The translations under genes were made by a program, and so were the position numbers. Under the pieces are notes generated by a model. That model did not search any database. It was not told where the DNA came from and was given only the letters and a program-made list of their open reading frames with translations. From Zootoca vivipara (Eukaryota): a stretch of DNA of 64,000 nucleotides. Location: positions 33,170,001-33,234,000 of the forward strand of contig NC_083288.1 in the NCBI RefSeq assembly GCF_963506605.1, in the 5' to 3' direction. This document shows, piece after piece, positions 19,074 through 56,026 of this stretch (position 1 is its first letter; the number at the start of each line of letters is the position of its first letter).

Positions 19074-30648
<11,575 letters not shown>

Positions 30649-32166: not shown

Positions 32167-33225
32167 TGTTAAGTTGTGGGTAAGCATAGCAGACGACACA
32201 GCAATCTCTCCAAAGCAGCTCTTTATTTGGAAGCTAGAACAGAACTGAACTGCATTGCCGAGCTAGCCTGCTTTTATAGAGGCTGGCTCAAACAATGTAT
32301 CAAACATAATTCAAAGTTCCCTCCTAAAGTTCCCTCCTAAAACAACTGTCAAGGACCTGAGGACTTGAGGACCTGAGGGAAAACTATATACACTAATACA
32401 TAACACCCCTCCCCACCGAGAAAAGGCATTAGTTACATTCGTAATGGTTTCAATTAGGTACAAGAGCATAACAGTTTCAAGGTACATAGCTTCTATTTAC
32501 AATGCAACGTTTCAAATGCAGTTACTGACATAGTCCCATAAGTAGGATGGCCGCTTGGTGACCCTGGTGGAACGCCGAGGGCCAGTACCAGTGTCCAGGG
32601 GGTTGGCCGATTCCTGCTGAGACTGTGGCGCCACCGATGTTGGTGGTGAGTCCAAGTTTCCTGTCTCCGTAACTGCTGAAGGAACCGCCATGTGCGGACT
32701 GGGCGGATGGTCAGGCACAGCAGTGGCACTAGACTCTGGGGGGCCCTGCTGAACCTCTGACGTGGCTTGGCTAGGATCCACATCCGCCGCTTGTGAGGGT
32801 GGTGTAGATTGAACCTCGCCTTCTGTTAGAACTGGCTTCTTAGTGGAGTGTGGGCTGCTGGCCTTGCGGATCTCCTGGGCGGAGAGTTCAGCAGCTTCTG
32901 CAGCTGCGGCTGCGGCCTCCTCCATGGCCTTCTGTAGCGTGAGGTCCGGCTTGGCGAGGAGGCGCTGCTGCAGACGGATGTTCCGGATTCCGCAGACGAC
33001 TCGATCCATCAGGGCGTCGTCAAGGTCCCGGAACTCACAATGTAGGGCGGCCTTCCTGAGAGCAGCGAGGTAATTGCTGATGGACTCCCTCTCGGCCTGG
33101 TTCCTGTGGTAGAAGGCATGGCGGGCAGCAATTTTAGACAGCTTGGGCGCGTAGTGGGTACGGAGCTTCTCTTGGAGCGTGTCCCATGGCGCTGCCTCAA
33201 CGGCTAGAGGTGCAAATTCCTCCAT
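32167..33225 (-). mobile_element. Internally deleted Ty3/Gypsy LTR retrotransposon: gag fragment, integrase C-tail, PPT and 3' LTR (32167-32405)
   Basis: LTR bounded by TGTTA...TAACA with TATA and AATAAA on the minus strand; purine tract 32406-32417; gag motifs RHAFYHRNQ..ESI..YLAALRK.A.HCEF, DRVVCGI..IRLQQRLL; RRSTRVTKRPSYLWDYV. Confidence 0.85.
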
Positions 33226-33525
33226 AGCCAGAGACAGGAGGGGAGGGAGATAAGGTTCCTGCAACAGTAAGAGTAACAAATGTGTTACAAGATAAGGGAA
33301 TCGTGAGAGCTGTGTGCAACGGGTGTATAATCTTGCTTATGCATGCATTTTGCTATAGCACTGATATATATGTTGTTTGTCACAATCTATAAAAAGGAGC
33401 GCCTGCCTATATTTGGGGCTCAGTCTTTGAGAAATATCTCACTGAAGCCGCAGCACAGCTTAATAAGCAAGACCTTCCTCAAAGAACTCATGTCTGTCTT
33501 CATTGACTAGAAGAAACTTGCAACA
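33226..33525 (+). mobile_element. Probable LTR fragment of a second retroelement
   Basis: TATAAAAA at 33388, AATAAG, ends ...GCAACA; 5' end unclear. Confidence 0.45.
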
Positions 33526-40001: not shown

Positions 40002-43000
40002 TATAAAATACTTCAGGATAGAGTCTTGGTATTAGAAGCATGCTCCAGAGCTAAAGTCCCGATAAGTCTCTGTTCAAATTAAGCCCTGCAATAAGCTCTA
40101 CCAGTCTAGCTAGGAAAATATACTCATAGCATATGTGTCACAATACAGAGCTGTATTCTTTTTATTAAAAAAAACATTAGTAAGAGATTGTAACCTGAGC
40201 CTCTTCCTCTTTCTCTTACATAGGCACCTATTTTTCAGTATTTGTGCTTCAGTGTCTCTGATATGAAAAACTGAAATGTTTTCCCTTCATTTTTGTTTTC
40301 TACAGATGCTGCCAGTTCTGAAGCAGGTAGGAACCCCTGTATATTTTGACCTTCCTACTCAAAATTTCAGGCTCATGGATGGGCTGAACCAAAGGGGAGT
40401 CTCATCAAATTATAGGGCTGCTACAAACCTAATGATCATGCAGACCTATTGTTAAACAGGAGCCTCCAGGCAGATTTAAAAGTATACTTAATAAATAAAT
40501 AAACTGAATATTGCTTCAATTGCTTCAATATATGGTGAGCCAGCCTAGCTGCAGTTAGAGGCATTATGGCTCTAAATTTGATTGGCTGGAAACCATTATC
40601 AATAACTAGAAATGTTCTTTAAAAGATCACATACAAATATTTGTTTTTTTTTGTTTCAGACAAGGCTTTTTTATGTTTGATTGTTTCTGGGTGTGCTTCA
40701 GTGCTGGTGTTATTGCGACCTATCTTTTTAAACCTTCTTTCCTTCTTCCACAGTTTGTGAAGCGCAAGCTCAACGAATTATTGGGGGCCGACCAGCTCCC
40801 TCTGATGGGTTGTCATGGCCCTGGCAAGTCAGCATTTTCTATCAGGGCAAACATATTTGTGGAGGCGCCCTCATAGCCGAGAAGTGGGTCCTGTCTGCAG
40901 CTCACTGCTTCCCTAAGTAAGTTTCTGGTGTACTTGGCTGTGAAGGCATCGTTCAGTTTCATCCTAGAGGCAGCTGCAAGGCCAAACTAATATTTTATGC
41001 CTAACACAGAAGGCATCAATGTGACACCCACAGGCACCAGTGTCCCTGCCAGTACGCCCTATGGCATCCACAAAAGGTATCAGCAAATAGCATCTCTTAC
41101 AGATGTGGCAGCCATTTTGTTTTGTACCTCACAGCCCAGAGCAGCCATTTTGTGACTAGCACCTAAACACTTTCTCAACATTCCCAATGTGCCCATTGGC
41201 TCAGAATGACTGCCCATGGCTGGCCTAACAGCAACTCAGTGCCTTGGCCTTGCCAAAGCAGAGCCTGGCAGAGCAATGAATAATAAAGTTAAAGGAAGCA
41301 GATAGCTGGCAGAAGTTATAGAGTAGGGCTGGGTGGATCTTTTTCAGCCTGGAAGTGGTTGGGGCCAGAGACAAATGTCAGTGGAGCAACAGCAGCAGCT
41401 CTCACCTTTGTACAATAGGCTACTTTCAAGCCATGCAGCTCTGGATGTGTACTGCATATTTTAAAACATGCAAATGGAGACAGGCATGCACAGAGTAGTT
41501 CTGTCTATGCCTGAGCAGTAAATTGTTCAAACTCCAGAGCCAGACTCAAATCACAAACTTTATAGGCTCAAGTTGAATGCCATTAAAGGTAAAAGGTAAA
41601 ATCCAGTCAAATTCGACTATGGGGTGTGGCGCTCATCTCCACTTTTGTACTATTGTGTCACCTGATGTCTGCTGACCACCTGCTTTGGGAGGGGACTGAA
41701 ATAACAAAACACATCAGAAATGGTGCCAGTAGCTCCCTCTTGGTGGTAAAGAGAGCAAGGTGACTTGCCAATGGTCAGGGATGTAAACCAACGGCCCTGC
41801 AGATATTGCTGGCTTCCTACTCCCATCAGCCCCATCCCATGTGCTCTGTGACCAGAGACGTTGTGAGTTTAAGTCCAGCATCTGGAGGGCCAAAGGTCCT
41901 CCATCCCTACCCTATAAGCTAGTTGCAAGAAATGGCAAGAACTTGTGCTTATGCACAATTTATAAAAAAAAAAAACCAGAGGGAAAGCAAAAATGAATGG
42001 GTGCCAATAACTTGTCTGGAGACATGGAAGGGCCAACCTGGGATCTTCTGCTTGGAAAGAGATATGGCATTTTCTCCACTGGGTTGCTATGGCCCTAGTC
42101 TCCCCTTTAAACTAGACATGTTGACATGAGACTGAATTACAAGGTCTAAGGGCACTCACCTCTTGGAAACCACTTTGGCAAAGATCTTGTTGCATTTTGC
42201 TCATGTTTTTTCACTTACAGCTTTAAGATGCAAACTAAGCATTATGTTGTGGTGCTGGGTGCCTATCAGCTCCTGAACACTTCAAGTAACACAGTAACAT
42301 CTGATATCCAACGGATTATCCTCCATCCCAGCTATGACAGCTATGACACCCCCCCCCCCAGAGGGGATATTGCTTTAGTAGAGCTGAAGTCCCCTGTGAG
42401 TTTCACTGCCTACATTCGCCCCATCTGCTTGCCAGAGGCCTCTGTACAGTTCTCAATGGAAGAAAGCTGTGTTGTGACTGGATGGGGAGAGATTCAACCT
42501 GGAGGTGAGGAGATGGAGAGGTGCTTTTGGGGGTTCTCCTTCAGGCTCTGTTTACTTTCATGCCAGCAATGTACACTGCACTTTTATAGGGCAAGCTGCC
42601 TCAGGTGGAAGATGCTGGATGATGTGGTTGAAATGCTGGAGGGTGGAGGTGGGTATGATTTGCAGCCAGGCGGGTATGGTTTGCAGCTAGGAATTGTGCA
42701 CTGTAATTCCCATCATCCTTGACCATTGACAATAATGTCTTGGGCTGATGGGAGTTATATTCCCCAACATCTGGAGGGATTCACAACCTCCAATCAGCCC
42801 AGTGTTGAGCCCTAATGGATCTTAGATGGTGAAGTATTGCAGAGACATGGGGCCACTGTGAAAAGATCCTACCCCAAGGGTTATAAATACAGTCATACCT
42901 CGGTTTAAGTACGCTTTGGTTTGCATACTTTCAGTTTAAGTACTCCGCGGACCGTCTGGAACGGATTAATCCACTTTCCATTACTTTCAATGGGAAAGTT

Positions 43001-46000
43001 TGCTTCAGGTTAAGTACCGACTTCCGGAACCAATTGTGTATTTAAACCGAGGTACCACTGTACCTGCAAACCATGAATAGTTAGGGCCTCAGGCTGGGTA
43101 TGAGGAGAGAGAGATCAAAAGCAAGACAAGACCATGGATTACTTTGATGATGAAGACAAAGAGTTTGTGCTGGACCTGACCTGAGAGTGAACAGGAAGGC
43201 AGTAAAGGGAGCTAAGCAGAGAATGCAACTCACACCGACCACCGCTATGTTATCTGGTGCAGTCATTACATACCCAACAAGTGTCCTGGGAAAAACCAGT
43301 ACTTCCTGTTTTTTCCTGCGAGAGCACATTTTGGGTGCCGTAATCTTGCACGATTTCGCGCCATGATCTCTCCATGAAAGAAGTGCTTTTTCAGGTCCAT
43401 GATATCATGCAGTGCCCCAAAACATGCATTTTGGGCTGTCAGGCTATTGTGTGACAGTACAGCCCTTTATAAAACATGTCTTTTGGGCTCTGTGATCTCA
43501 CACAGGTCACGTGACTCGCACAGGAGCACATCTGGGAAGACACGTATCCCAGTTTTAGGACTCAACATGTGGGAGGGTATGGCATTGCAGCAGTGGGGTG
43601 GTATCTACAGGCCTGAATTTGAGCCAGGCCAGGCCAGAGCTCAACTTCTGGGCTGCCTTGTAATGGTAGAAAAATGGCCTTCAGAGCCATGCATTAGAAA
43701 GAATGTCTGTGAGACAGAGTGCCTTTTGATAGTGTANNNNNNNNNNNNNNNNNNNNNNNNNNNNNNNNNNNNNNNNNNNNNNNNNNNNNNNNNNNNNNNN
43801 NNNNNNNNNNNNNNNNNNNNNNNNNNNNNNNNNNNNNNNNNNNNNNNNNNNNNNNNNNNNNNNNNNGAAAACTAGCAAATATATTTATGACATAAGCTTT
43901 TGTGGAATTGTCCACAGAAGCTTATGCCACAACTAGTGTATTTCAGCCCGTTCAATAACGGGCGCTAGAACATCCTGGGGTTTGGAGAAGCGCTTGCGCA
44001 GCGCTTCTCCGAACCCTGGGACCTGTCCTTGCTGTCGGCGGCAGGGGGACAGGAACGGAGGAGGAGAAAGCGCTGCTTTCTCCTCCTCCGTTCCTCTCTC
44101 CCAGCCGCCGACAGCAAGGAGACATCCTGGGGTTTGGAGAAGCGCTTGCGCAGCGCTTCTCCGAACCCTGGGACCTGTCCTTACTGTCGGCGGCAGGGGG
44201 ACAGGAACGGAGGAGGAGAAAGCGCTGCTTTCTCCTCCTCCGTTCCTCTCTCCCAGCCGCCGACAGCAAGGAGACATCCTGGGGTTCGGAGAAGCGCTTG
44301 TGCAGCGCTTCTCCGAACCCTGGGACCTGTCCTTGCTGTCGGCGGCAGGGGGACAGGAACGGAGGAGGAGAAAGTGCTGCTTTCTCCTCCTCCGTTCCTC
44401 TCTCCCAGCCGCCGACAGCAAGGAGACATCCTGGGGTTCGGAGAAGCGCTTGTGCAGCGCTTCTCCGAACCCTGGGACCTGTCCTTGCTGTCGGCGGCAG
44501 GGGGACAGGAACGGAGGAGGAGAAAGCGCTGCTTTCTCCTCCTCCGTTCCTCTCTCCCAGCCGCCGACAGCAAGGAGACATCCTGGGGTTCGGAGAAGCG
44601 CTTGCGCAGCGCTTCTCCGAACCCTGGGACCTGTCCTTACTGTCGGCGGCAGGAGGACAGGAATGAAGAAGGAGAAAGCGCTGCTTTCTTCTCCTCCGTT
44701 CCTCTCCCGCAGCCGCCGACAGCAAGGAGACATCCCAGGGTTCGGAGAAGCGCTTGCGCAGCGCTTCTCCGAACCCTGGGACCTGTCCTTGTTGTCGCCG
44801 GCAGGACAGGAACGAAGGAGGAGAAAGCGCTGCTTTCTCCTCCTTCCTTCCTCTCCCGCAGCCGCCGACAGGAAGGACGCGGGACACAAACCCCTACTTC
44901 GTCGCCGCTGCTTCATGGCCTCCTGCCGCTCCTCTCACGGGCCAGGGAGGGTTGTGAGGAGGAGGTCTCCGCCGGCCTCCACCCTCGCTTCCCTGACGTT
45001 CTGGCCAGGAGCGGCGGTTGGAGGAGGCAGGGGGGGGGAGAGAGTGCGCGCGTGCAGTCTCTGCTGTCCAATCCCTGTGTCGCTGGGGCACATGCGCAGT
45101 GACCCAGGGACACACGGGACAGCTTGGACGCAGGGACAACTTGCAAATTATTATATAGGATAAATGTGCTTCAAGACTCATTGCTGCTTTTATTAACCAC
45201 AAAGTAACTACAGCTGAATAATAGGACAGATGAGGAGGCAAGGTCTGAAATCCAAGCATGTAACTTTCCAGCACACCTTCTCCCCTTGGAAAACAGATGG
45301 AGCCAAGGGTAAGGGATGGTGGAAGTTATAGTTGAACAACTTCCAGAGGGTCACAAGTTCCTCGTTCTCCAAGTTAGAGTTTCACAACAGTCTGGAAGCT
45401 AACAGTGCTGCCGCTTTTCTCACCAGTAGATGGTGAAAGTGAACCCTCTTATACAATTCTATAAGCAGAGAGGAAGGAAAAGGCAATCAGCTGGCCACTT
45501 AATCATATCTTATTATTGTCCCTGGTTTTTTATCAGGAATTGATGTTAAAATGCAGGTTTCTTTCTCTTAATGCTGTAAAGTTTCGCACATGTCTGGGCA
45601 GTGCTTTGTGAAATCTCAGAAACCAGTGGTCAGGGGAGATGGACACAGTCACTATTTGCTTTTGCCTTCCTCTTGCAGAATGGACAATGTAAAATAGGCA
45701 GCTATTAGAGTATACATTGGGGTAAGAGATATAATTGGGATGGGTGGCTATCCACCTGATCACATCCCTAATGATACATTTGCTTCCTCTTACAGTGGCA
45801 TTGCCACCCCCACTAACCCTCCAGGAAGTGAAAGTGCCACTCATAGACCGAGAAAAATGCAATTCTCTCTTCAATGCTGCCCAACGTGAACCACCACTCT
45901 ATAATCCAGTCGGCCCTGGTATGATCTGTGCTGGCTACCAAGAAGGTGGCAAAGATTCCTGCCAGGTAGGATGCTCCATAATTGTGGTTGGCTGTGGTGG

Positions 46001-47516
46001 ACAGCAGCACCCCAGTAAAGGAGGGGACGGGCTCCAAAGGTCTAGCTCAGGTATGGAGAACCTGTGGCCCTCCAGACATTGTCATCCCCCCCGATCATTG
46101 GCTCTGCTGGCTGGGGCTGATGGGAGTTGGAGTCCAACAACAGCTGGGAGGCCACAGATTTTTCCATCCTTTGTCTTGGTTTTATTCACAGGGCCAGCAG
46201 TTCAGAAACGTAGCCTTCTCAGAAGATGAGTACAGGCCTACTCACTCTTAAATAGACATGACATAAAAATGAAATGTTTTAGCAGTGGGGTGGTAGACAT
46301 ACAGGGCCGTCTCAAGCATGTCGGGCGCCCTGGCGCCGTGGTGCGGAGATTGCTCCGGTGCCCCCGCCCCGCTCCGTTTCTTGCTGTGGCTGGTGGGTGG
46401 CCGTAGCTTGCAGCACGGTTCCCGTGCCGCTCCGCCGTGCGGCGCCCCCCTACCAGGCCGGCGCCCCACACCACCCAGACTACCCCTAGAGCCGGCCCTC
46501 TAGACATAGGTGGCAAGGCATTACATGCAAGCTAGTGAGCAGGCTGGCAGAGGAGAGACAGGGTGCTCCATCTCTAATCTATGTCCACCATAGAAGCCAA
46601 GAGGTCTGCTGGAGGAGGCAATCTCCATGCTCCAGGCCCTGCATTAAAATGCAGTGGGCTGCTGCGATAAGGACTGAGCTGTTTGTCTCTCCTCTCCTGG
46701 CCCGCAGCAAGCATACATTTTTGCAAGCCCACAGCAAGCTAACATACATTTTTGCAGGCCAGTAACATTTGAAGACTTCTTTACAAGGCTGCATTATATA
46801 TTCATTAAACTGAAACTGAAAGTCTGGACCAGGGATAGAAGGATCTGTCGATTTCAGCTTTCAACATTTTAATGTGAATTTCTCCCAATAAGCGCAATTT
46901 CATATGCAGCTTTGACTAATATACATGCCTGTGCAAGCAATATTTTAATAATATATGCATCTTTGTTAACATTGTTTAGTTGGAGAACTGAATCACAAAA
47001 TTCAGATATGTGTGGATTTCAACAGATAGCTGGGTTTCAGTTCCCATATTGTTTTGGAAAATTCATATTTGGTCGTTTCAGCCTTATGCATAGTTTCTCC
47101 TCCATACCTTAGCCATTTCTTCACTACCTTAATCTAGCTGAACTATACATGAGGACAGGACCAGATCTGTAAAGGAAATAAGCATAATCTGTTTTGAAAC
47201 CAGTCTCCCAAACCTGCTTCCTGTAACCATGGACTGACTCCTATCTCTCTTTCCACAGGGTGACTCTGGGGGACCCTTGGCTTGCCCATATGATGGACAT
47301 TGGGTCCTGGCTGGGGTCGTGAGCTGGGGGATAGGCTGTGGCCGCCCTGGTCTCCCTGGTGTCTATTCTTCAGTCCCTTTTTATGCCACTTGGATCTCCC
47401 AGCATATACCCAGTATGACCTTTGCGATGCGTGGGAATGGTGGGGTGAATGGCAGAGAACAGAATTCCCCTGCTGTGATACTTCTCCTAGTGTTTTTTGC
47501 TTTGACCCTTCTATGA
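38538..47516 (+). CDS. Gene C: complete trypsin-like serine protease (PRSS27/PRSS33-like), 316 aa, predicted GPI-anchored. Exons 38538-38592, 40306-40326, 40754-40916, 42221-42504, 45796-45965, 47259-47516
   Basis: Spliced CDS 951 nt, open; [33 protein letters not shown]|IIGG...SAAHC...GDIAL...DSCQ|GDSGGP...SWG...PGVY...[17 protein letters not shown]. Confidence 0.93.
39011..39307 (-). mobile_element. Sauria SINE
   Basis: Reverse complement of the family; TSD TGTAATGTTAAA. Confidence 0.85.
39961..40000 (+). repeat. (ACTT)n microsatellite
   Basis: Seen directly. Confidence 0.9.
40306..40326 (+). CDS. Gene C micro-exon 2 (21 nt, DAASSEA)
   Basis: TTTTCTACAG acceptor, GCAG|GTAGG donor. Confidence 0.82.
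40754..40916 (+). CDS. Gene C exon 3 (R|IIGG...WPWQVS...CGGALI...SAAHC)
   Basis: Translated by hand (this frame is not in the ORF track); CCACAG acceptor, GTAAGT donor, 163 nt. Confidence 0.93.
42221..42504 (+). CDS. Gene C exon 4 (GDIAL, IRPICLP, CVVTGWG)
   Basis: ORF 42228..42722; TTACAG acceptor, GTGAGG donor. Confidence 0.95.
42890..43060 (+). mobile_element. Tigger-like MITE family X, single unit
   Basis: Termini and TA flanks. Confidence 0.85.
43737..43866. other. Assembly gap (130 N) in gene C intron 4
   Basis: Run of N. Confidence 1.
43933..45160 (-). mobile_element. Non-autonomous Helitron carrying a minisatellite array
   Basis: Minus strand A|TCCTATATAATAA ... GCCCGTT-ATTG-AACGGGC hairpin, 9 nt, CTAG|T; no TSD. 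Confidence 0.88.
43971..44875. repeat. Tandem array of six 152-bp GC-rich palindromic units
   Basis: Unit starts at 43971, 44123, 44275, 44427, 44579, 44731. Confidence 0.95.
45796..45965 (+). CDS. Gene C exon 5 ([10 protein letters not shown]...[15 protein letters not shown])
   Basis: ORF 45735..46229; 170 nt. Confidence 0.95.
46302..46500 (+). mobile_element. GC-rich hAT MITE
   Basis: CAGGGCCGTCTC...GAGCCGGCCCTC; 8-bp TSD TAGACATA. Confidence 0.85.
47259..47516 (+). CDS. Gene C exon 6 (GDSGGP, GPI-like tail, TGA)
   Basis: CCACAG|GGTGACTCT; ORF 47277..47516. Confidence 0.95.
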
Positions 47517-54980: not shown

Positions 54981-56026
54981 CAGTCATACCTCGGTTTAAG
55001 TACGTATCGGTTTGAGTACTTTCAGTTTAAGTACTCCACAGACCTGTCTGGAACTGATTAATCCACTTTCCATTACTTTCAATGGGAAAGTTTGCTTCAG
55101 GTTAAGTACGCTTCAGGTTAAGTACGGACTTCCAGAACCAATTACACTCATACTTCGGGTTAAGTAGACAGGGCGGCGGTCTACCAGCTCCCATCTGGTA
55201 CACAGGCTGAGACCCTACCTGCCCACAGACTGTCTCACCAGAGTGGTGCATGCTCTAGTTATCTCCCGCTTGGACTACTGCAATGCGCTCTACGTGGGGC
55301 TACCTTTGAAGGTGACCCGGAAACTGCAATTAATCCAGAATGCGGCAGCTAGACTGGTGACTGGGAGCGGCCGCCGAGACCACATAACACCGGTCCTAAG
55401 AGACCTACATTGGCTCCCAGTACATTTCCGAGCACAATTCAAAGTGTTGGTGCTGACCTTTAAAGCCCTAAATGGCCTCGGTCCTATATATCTGAAGGAG
55501 CGTCTCCACCCCCATTGTTCAGCCCGGACACTGAGATCCAGTGCCGAGGGCCTTCTGGCGGTTCCCTCATTGCGAGAAGCAAAGCTACAGGGAACCAGGC
55601 AGAGGGCCTTCTTGGTGGTGGTGCCCGCCCTGTGGAACGCCCTCCCATCGGAGGTCAATGAGATAAAAAAACTACCTGACATTTAGAAAACACCTAAAGG
55701 CAGCCCTGTTTAGGGAGGTTTTTAATCTGTGATATTTTAATGTACTGTATTTTGGTATTTGTTGGAAGCTGCCCAGAGTGGCGGGGGAAACCCAGCCAGA
55801 TGGGTGGGGTATAAAAGAAGACGAAGACGAAGACGAAGACGAAGACGAAGACGAAGAAGAAGAAGAAGAAGAAGAAGAAGAAGAAGAAGAAGGCTTCAGG
55901 TTGAGTACTCCACGGACCCGTCTGGAACGGATTAATCCAATTTCCATTACTTTCATTGGGAAAGTTCGCTTCAGGTTAAGTACAGACTTCCAGAACCAAT
56001 TGTGTACTTAAACCGAGGTACCACTG
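54981..56026 (+). mobile_element. Tigger-like MITE family X, two units, interrupted by L2
   Basis: Termini and TA flanks. Confidence 0.8.
55168..55891 (+). mobile_element. L2 LINE 3' fragment with (GAAGAC)6(GAA)13 tail
   Basis: ORF 55243..55686 [16 protein letters not shown]...HITPVLRDLHWLP. Confidence 0.9.

Follow-up and report, generated by a model that had tools for sequence, protein, structure and literature searches.

Near-perfect hairpin arrays in a young Helitron family of Zootoca vivipara, a probable by-product of transposition

An element carrying an array of near-perfect hairpins lies in an intron of a serine protease gene of Zootoca vivipara, within the window analysed here (64,000 nucleotides of NC_083288.1, from 33,170,001 to 33,234,000; plain positions below are those of the window). 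We think it probable that this is a young Heli1Xen1-a Helitron, likely mobilised by RepHel, and that its array arose as a by-product of copying in which the peeled-off strand folded back and slipped, rather than as an RNA device of the host. Taken singly, the copy is nothing out of the ordinary: a young transposon that landed in an intron. Its family amounts to about two thousand copies, many of them with strings of unrelated hairpins, and it is this family-wide pattern, not the single insertion, that is useful.

The Helitron and its insertion site

The element occupies 43933–45160 on the minus strand (1,228 bp) and is almost certainly a non-autonomous Helitron of the canonical Helitron1 type. 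Its 5′ end, TCCTATATAATAAT, starts with TC at 45160 and its 3′ end, GCCCGTTATTGAACGGGC followed by 9 nt and CTAG, lies at 43933, both read on the minus strand; an A precedes the insertion point, a T follows it, and a target duplication is absent. Canonical Helitron ends on this strand had been proposed in the sequence-only reading, and the TC start, the hairpin-CTAG end and the A|T site agree with them. The left terminal sequence (45057–45160) comprises the TC start, an AT-rich head and an imperfect hairpin, and over 104 bp shares 91% identity with the autonomous element described below. It is followed, on the same strand, by a GC-rich unique interior (44878–45056), in which similarity to the autonomous 5′ region (72%) is confined to the first ~50 nt, by the tandem array (43970–44877) and by the right terminal sequence (43933–43973). 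The latter carries a terminator-type hairpin with a 7-bp stem (43946–43963), 9 nt before CTAG, and is 86% identical to the autonomous element over 41 bp. The Helitron's own open frames (4 among 148 ORFs) had no Pfam match above cut-off, so we consider it non-coding. A Helentron or HINE (DINE-like) class was also considered for the element and rejected: among the 20 inverted pairs listed, none was a subterminal inverted repeat linking both ends.

Tandem Repeats Finder recovered the six tandem units read earlier from the letters (period 152, 6.0 copies, 96% match, 43970–44877). Each unit combines a hairpin H2 (46-bp stem, 3-nt loop) with a hairpin H1 (17-bp stem, 5-nt loop). Folding of a single unit gave two long hairpins on either strand, as anticipated, with −131 kcal/mol (z −15) on the plus strand and −129 kcal/mol (z −18) on the minus strand; 0 of 200 shuffles folded as well in either case. 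The units are not uniform. A perfect 17-bp H1 stem, as first described, is present in four of six (for instance at 44282–44320, from the inverted-repeat and unit analysis) while two carry one mismatch, and the TGCGC loop is likewise found in four, TGTGC replacing it in two. The first description of H2 holds for two units only; two others have an additional mismatch and the remaining two, closest to the Helitron's 5′ end, are degenerate. In the H2 at 44482–44576, 43 of 46 pairs are Watson-Crick by unit comparison.

The Helitron is antisense in an intron (42505–45795) of gene C (exons located within 40754–47516, plus strand), which codes for a trypsin-family serine protease with an intact catalytic triad and a hydrophobic C-terminus; we take it to be prostasin/PRSS27-like. 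We located four catalytic-domain exons, the 5′ exons of the gene being outside that set. All are on the plus strand: 40754–40916, with the IIGG start and the catalytic His, and 42221–42504, with the catalytic Asp, both of the trypsin-family domain and upstream of the Helitron; 45796–45965, downstream of it and transcribed at low depth; and the last coding exon, 47259–47516, with the GDSGG Ser and the hydrophobic tail. A contig from what is presumably an RNA run has the intron between the last two spliced out. The earlier placement of the array inside an intron of this gene is therefore correct, between exons 42221–42504 and 45796–45965, and its proposed number, intron 4, would fit a prostasin-type exon layout.

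The insertion cut an older interspersed repeat, presumably Penelope-like, whose palindromic end forms the target flank at 43882–43932 and which resumes at 45161–45190. A paralogue of this repeat (L120) has both flanks contiguous, at ~77–80% identity. In X3 and X5, contigs cross from the flank into the Helitron. Those of X6 (another sample with the same organism code) and X14 (a second organism) extend 106 and 120 letters beyond the junction and are unlike the Helitron there, the letters themselves not being displayed. This suggests an empty allele and a polymorphic insertion: individual X6 and the related species X14 appear to lack it, and the gene C copy is probably a recent, polymorphic passenger insertion. 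Two other repeats of the window were seen on the way. A 274-aa frame at 32515–33336 (minus strand), whose Retrotrans_gag match is weak and below cut-off (E 0.002), is probably the remnant of an LTR element, and a short interspersed repeat with 15–16-bp internal motifs, which we assume to be MITE-like and common in lacertids, recurs at 10955–11258, 24758–24794, 42890–43062 and 54991–55126.

Copies in the genome and their autonomous partner

Searching the genome with the family 5′ end yielded 2,323 matches (control 3), and 268 exact 31-nt 3′ ends (control 0) and 1,714 exact H2 cores were counted as well; copies do share these termini, as a Helitron origin had implied. We cut out 68 full copies, the window copy included, after dropping four of 72 3′ ends with no 5′ end within 3.2 kb (L037, L043, L097, L117). 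An A precedes the insertion in 66 of the 68 and a T follows it in all 68; in the 36 copies of an unselected sample (see below) the figures are 36/36 and 35/36. Flanks differ between the 68 copies, and the site is followed on its 3′ side by 12 AT-rich bases, the same target bias as described for Helraiser insertions (PMC4778049). Dispersed copies, shared ends and A|T sites strongly support the proposed Helitron with a mobile internal array.

Several side observations were made on these loci. The 3′ target of the 68 copies is similar to the left end of the element itself (T..TATATAAT); some copies lie beside or inside the 5′ end of another family copy, autonomous ones included (L033, L036/L074, L068, L090, L109). 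Others have long interiors without the array (L049, L035/L044/L046/L095, L105, L128/L147/L154). The interior of L049 is GC-rich DNA resembling a captured first exon, and hairpin arms of the L128 type contain a CAAGATGGCGGC motif that we take to be typical of housekeeping 5′ UTRs; capture of gene fragments by L049 and the L128-type copies is possible.

A genome search for Helitron_like_N gave 24 matches, eight of them in long open frames. The eight corresponding autonomous copies have an intact RepHel ORF of 1,648 aa with Helitron_like_N (E 7e-65) and PIF1 (E 1e-59) domains, and are found (within L059–L074) at G000:C1:119235k-119242k, C3:101614k-101620k, C6:24170k-24176k, C10:57318k-57325k, C6:18179k-18186k, C2:115240k-115246k, C1:43679k-43686k and C1:43696k-43703k. 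Five autonomous copies of 6,580 bp differ by 0–2 nt from one of the eight, and the family is thus probably still active. Because the window Helitron shares both its termini with these copies, we consider RepHel its putative mobiliser: judged from sequence, it was likely moved in trans by the intact copies of the same genome.

RepHel has a fully identical counterpart (100%) among Zootoca vivipara proteins; its identity is 79–80% to proteins of Erpetoichthys and Polypterus and 73% to that of Hemicordylus. Its start and both termini match Heli1Xen1 sequences of X. laevis when compared by eye, and the terminal patterns TC-TATATAA and CCCGTT…AACGGG-CTAG are present in the window family, which is for this reason very likely a member of Heli1Xen1-a. 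According to the available text of PMC12001565, Heli1Xen1 moved between frogs, lacertids, cordylids and polypterids by horizontal transfer; its group a, delimited by RepHel identity of ~95% and shared by Lacertidae and Xenopus, would have entered Zootoca under 1 Mya.

Array dynamics and origin of the hairpins

The suspected variation in unit number is extensive, from 0 to 14.5 units among the 68 full copies. Even among the 13 copies, that of the window counted, whose 5′ 283 nt are at least 98.6% identical to those of the window copy, the range is from 3 to 14.5 units. Identical orders of unit variants recur at different loci, which differ by whole units or blocks. Arrays are thus transposed whole, and their growth or shrinkage takes place within the element. 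Accordingly, a two-hairpin module beside the right end would duplicate in tandem, gain or lose whole units and be transposed as such; the in-register patterns are observed, and from them we infer slippage or unequal exchange.

These counts also bear on whether the 152-bp unit is a satellite DNA escaping from its carrier, as with DINE- or HINE-borne repeats. Its size and variable copy number do resemble the arrays of oyster Cg_HINE (140–180 bp; available text of PMC7492417). However, the longest array seen had 14.5 units, and the first 100 of the 1,714 H2 cores formed short clusters of at most 11, in assemblies that can collapse long arrays. Neither among these 100 cores nor in the 68 and 36 copies did we find a long free array outside the element. 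The arrays seen were all short and those cut out lay inside Helitron ends, contrary to the earlier suggestion of satellite seeding, and we hold such an escape to be very unlikely.

Two simple sources or roles of the hairpins were rejected. H1 and H2 are not derivatives of the autonomous element, which BLAST matched at the ends only. Nor is H1 a premature terminator, in spite of standing at a similar distance before an internal CTAG. This CTAG is followed by CG in 207 cases and by a base other than C in 60, of which 54 have A. Six of seven CTAG+A sites inspected continue into the true end, the seventh being a rearranged copy; so do all the CTAG+T (5/5) and CTAG+G (1/1) sites. This agrees with Helraiser, whose terminator depends on its loop. 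Internal hairpins would therefore let transposition proceed, as shown for H1, and ride along as passengers in roughly neutral decay, consistent with the lack of covariation and strand bias reported below.

We then asked how general such interiors are, using an unselected sample of 39 loci that takes in, whatever their interior, the 40 family 5′ ends listed first on contig 1; 36 had a 3′ end, and L139, L144 and L153 were dropped. The first 300 nt of each interior were folded against 12 shuffles per copy. Strong folding (z < −3) was observed in 22 of the 36 copies and was missing in the other 14, while the autonomous 5′ region gave z values of +0.8, −0.7 and +2.8. Long hairpins cover 0.24 of the elements against 0.02 of flanks of equal length (present in 4 of 36) and 0.004 of 30 kb of the window. 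The 152-bp array is present in only seven of these copies. Three others (L141, L146, L155) have tandem units of 129–131 bp and one (L130) units of 118 bp, all made of hairpin pairs and unrelated to the 152-bp unit, and the interiors of L135 and L151 are strings of at least eight hairpins. An arm of the second array (129–131 bp) has 1,513 exact matches in the genome, up to two per hairpin.

Fold-backs of the element's own sequence were observed as well: L079 and L047 contain an inverted copy of autonomous nt ~124–150, a segment of the element's 5′ region, L112 an inverted copy of its own 3′ end, and L121 (G000:C2:3041897-3043560) an inverted block within the array. In L163–L165, too, the array or the 3′ end is internally inverted or folded back. 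These self-copies argue against the alternative that ready-made hairpins were captured from other palindromic elements or CpG-island DNA and then amplified, as does the rarity of hairpins in flanks and window. Capture would account for the GC- and CpG-rich interiors, unrelated to the autonomous element past ~150–180 nt, and has a precedent in the 5′ gene fragments that Heli1Xen1 takes up in X. laevis (available text of PMC12001565); we nevertheless find it improbable.

In the by-product account, which we prefer, RepHel would nick the TC end, peel off one strand, stop at the 3′ hairpin-CTAG and insert between A and T with an AT-rich 3′ side. This course is established for Helraiser; the target pattern is what we observed here and the mobiliser is suggested by the shared termini. 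Non-autonomous derivatives would have acquired a GC-rich interior and copied it back on itself into near-perfect inverted duplications. The duplications are observed, and their timing during transposition is what we propose: fold-back priming or template switching may have occurred while the peeled strand was copied, and the resulting hairpins would promote slippage into tandem arrays. For Helraiser, copying does follow the peeling off of one strand, and the peeled strand has been proposed to undergo lagging-strand synthesis (available text of PMC5876387). The same source indicates that the peeled strand quickly becomes double-stranded, and this narrows the single-stranded window for fold-back. 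Also against the by-product account, a source locus with a single, unpaired arm was not found, inverted duplications could equally arise in chromosomal replication or repair, and 14 of the 36 sampled copies lack strong folding in the 300 nt examined.

The main rival is selection at the level of the element, in which self-pairing interiors would raise transposition, by easier strand displacement or by shielding and compacting the peeled strand, and hairpin-rich derivatives would be repeatedly favoured. The three unrelated tandem units (152, ~129–131 and ~118 bp), each a hairpin pair, the multi-hairpin strings of L135 and L151 and the abundance of the second array's arm all point in this direction. 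Hairpin-rich copies look younger than hairpin-poor ones: they have closer relatives, and CpG o/e correlates with hairpin cover (rho 0.42, p 0.011, n=36), a relation confounded by CpG decay and by a nearest-neighbour pool enriched for the H1/H2 subfamily. Another hairpin, H5, shows double changes at three positions among 10 copies; like the younger age of hairpin-rich copies, these fit positive selection or arm-to-arm correction.

Variation within H1 and H2 speaks against such selection. In a covariation set of 309 units from 59 elements (98 distinct), the 48 shared stem variants comprise 17 A.C, 15 G.T, 14 other mismatches and only two compensatory changes. Covariation is thus almost nil in the stems and strand-biased G.U is lacking, G.T being in no excess over A.C on the transferred strand. 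Similarly, paired and unpaired sites vary about equally (84 variant types over 126 sites versus 19 over 22). Selection on RNA or on single-strand folding of H1/H2 was not detected in the 309 units; it is their youth that makes the stems look perfect. We consider selection on the element unlikely on balance, the capture, satellite and RNA readings being weaker rivals still.

A device of the host RNA, with the intronic hairpins as substrates of small-RNA processing or ADAR editing or as modifiers of gene C splicing, is in our view the least likely of all. In its favour, the hairpins are very stable on the pre-mRNA strand, gene C is transcribed (exon depth about 4–8 on the expected strand in three RNA runs, with about 6 in 100 of each read), and reads from family copies are present in RNA runs. 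RNA depth in the unique bins of the intron was zero in the three runs, which is uninformative at such expression. Against it, this is one of hundreds of dispersed copies, apparently absent from another individual and a related species, and covariation and strand bias are lacking. The A-to-G check did not support the suggested ADAR editing either: in X21, the changes were A>G 10, T>C 16, C>T 12 and G>A 17, with no excess of A>G/T>C, in reads of low depth. This result is weak because other copies supply most of the reads on the element and further repeats are present in the stretch. A known microRNA or structured RNA family was rejected, Rfam giving only generic miRNA-hairpin matches; among those listed (150 of 176), all were below the gathering score (best 80.9 versus 168 and 65.6 versus 86 bits). 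An RNA-level role of the array in the host is thus unsupported, and the hairpins probably do nothing for gene C; incidental editing or siRNA production from them is possible.

Comparison with known systems

DINE-TR1 is a non-autonomous rolling-circle element with central tandem repeats, and DINE-1 is said to be another. Cg_HINE and Pearl similarly are non-coding rolling-circle carriers of internal arrays of ~140–180 bp in variable number; the available text of PMC7492417 does not present their units as near-perfect hairpin pairs, which those of the window element are. Further examples in Drosophila and bats are cited in PMC12001565, as available, along with Heli2Xen of Xenopus, which has an internal minisatellite of 166 bp. 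As far as these sources go, Cg_HINE, Pearl, DINE and Heli2Xen are Helentron/Helitron2 elements with subterminal inverted repeats, whereas the window element is a canonical Helitron1. Minisatellite-laden Helitrons are therefore already known, and the recurring hairpin-array architecture is a new variation on them. Our literature search on hairpin-rich or fold-back Helitron interiors, with subscription journals mostly outside its coverage, returned no description.

Heli1Xen1-a as presented in PMC12001565 agrees with the window family in its TATATAAA-type left end, its CCCGTTA…TAACGGG right hairpin, its many non-autonomous copies and its occurrence in Lacertidae. It differs in that, in the available text, minisatellites are tied to Heli2Xen and not to Heli1Xen1; the hairpin of its main text is that of the right end only, internal hairpin arrays being undescribed in it. 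The sequence supplement of that paper may hold these lizard copies unremarked.

Helraiser/Helibat shares with the family the TC/CTAG ends, the A|T target with an AT-rich 3′ side, the 3′ hairpin terminator whose loop matters, one-strand transfer and cross-mobilisation of non-autonomous elements (available text of PMC4778049 and PMC5876387). Helraiser is a reconstruction, whereas the Zootoca family has near-identical intact copies in a living genome. The Helitron mechanism has so far been studied chiefly on this reconstructed bat element. Here one genome combines intact RepHel copies, probably polymorphic insertions and both hairpin-rich and hairpin-free non-autonomous subfamilies, which opens two questions to experiment. 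One is whether inverted duplications and internal minisatellites are made by rolling-circle transposition as such, the other whether mobility depends on how the transferred strand folds. More than a thousand strong hairpins dispersed through a vertebrate genome are also raw material for small RNAs or editing sites, which does not imply their use.

More speculatively, and in our opinion rather doubtfully, a living Helitron of a vertebrate may be a hairpin factory, turning captured GC-rich DNA into inverted duplications on the transposing strand, with self-paired interiors favoured by better transposition and at least three independent arrays as the outcome. If true, well over a thousand dispersed stems of ~20–46 bp would have been produced in a short evolutionary time, giving a standing source of new double-stranded RNA and a eukaryotic parallel to REPIN/BIME arrays. 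REP, REPIN and BIME are bacterial hairpin arrays beside RAYT HUH transposases, and the likeness, by analogy only, lies in non-autonomous tandem modules of hairpin pairs tied to an HUH single-strand transposase. There the hairpin is the recognised end, whereas in the lizard Helitron the hairpins are internal cargo.
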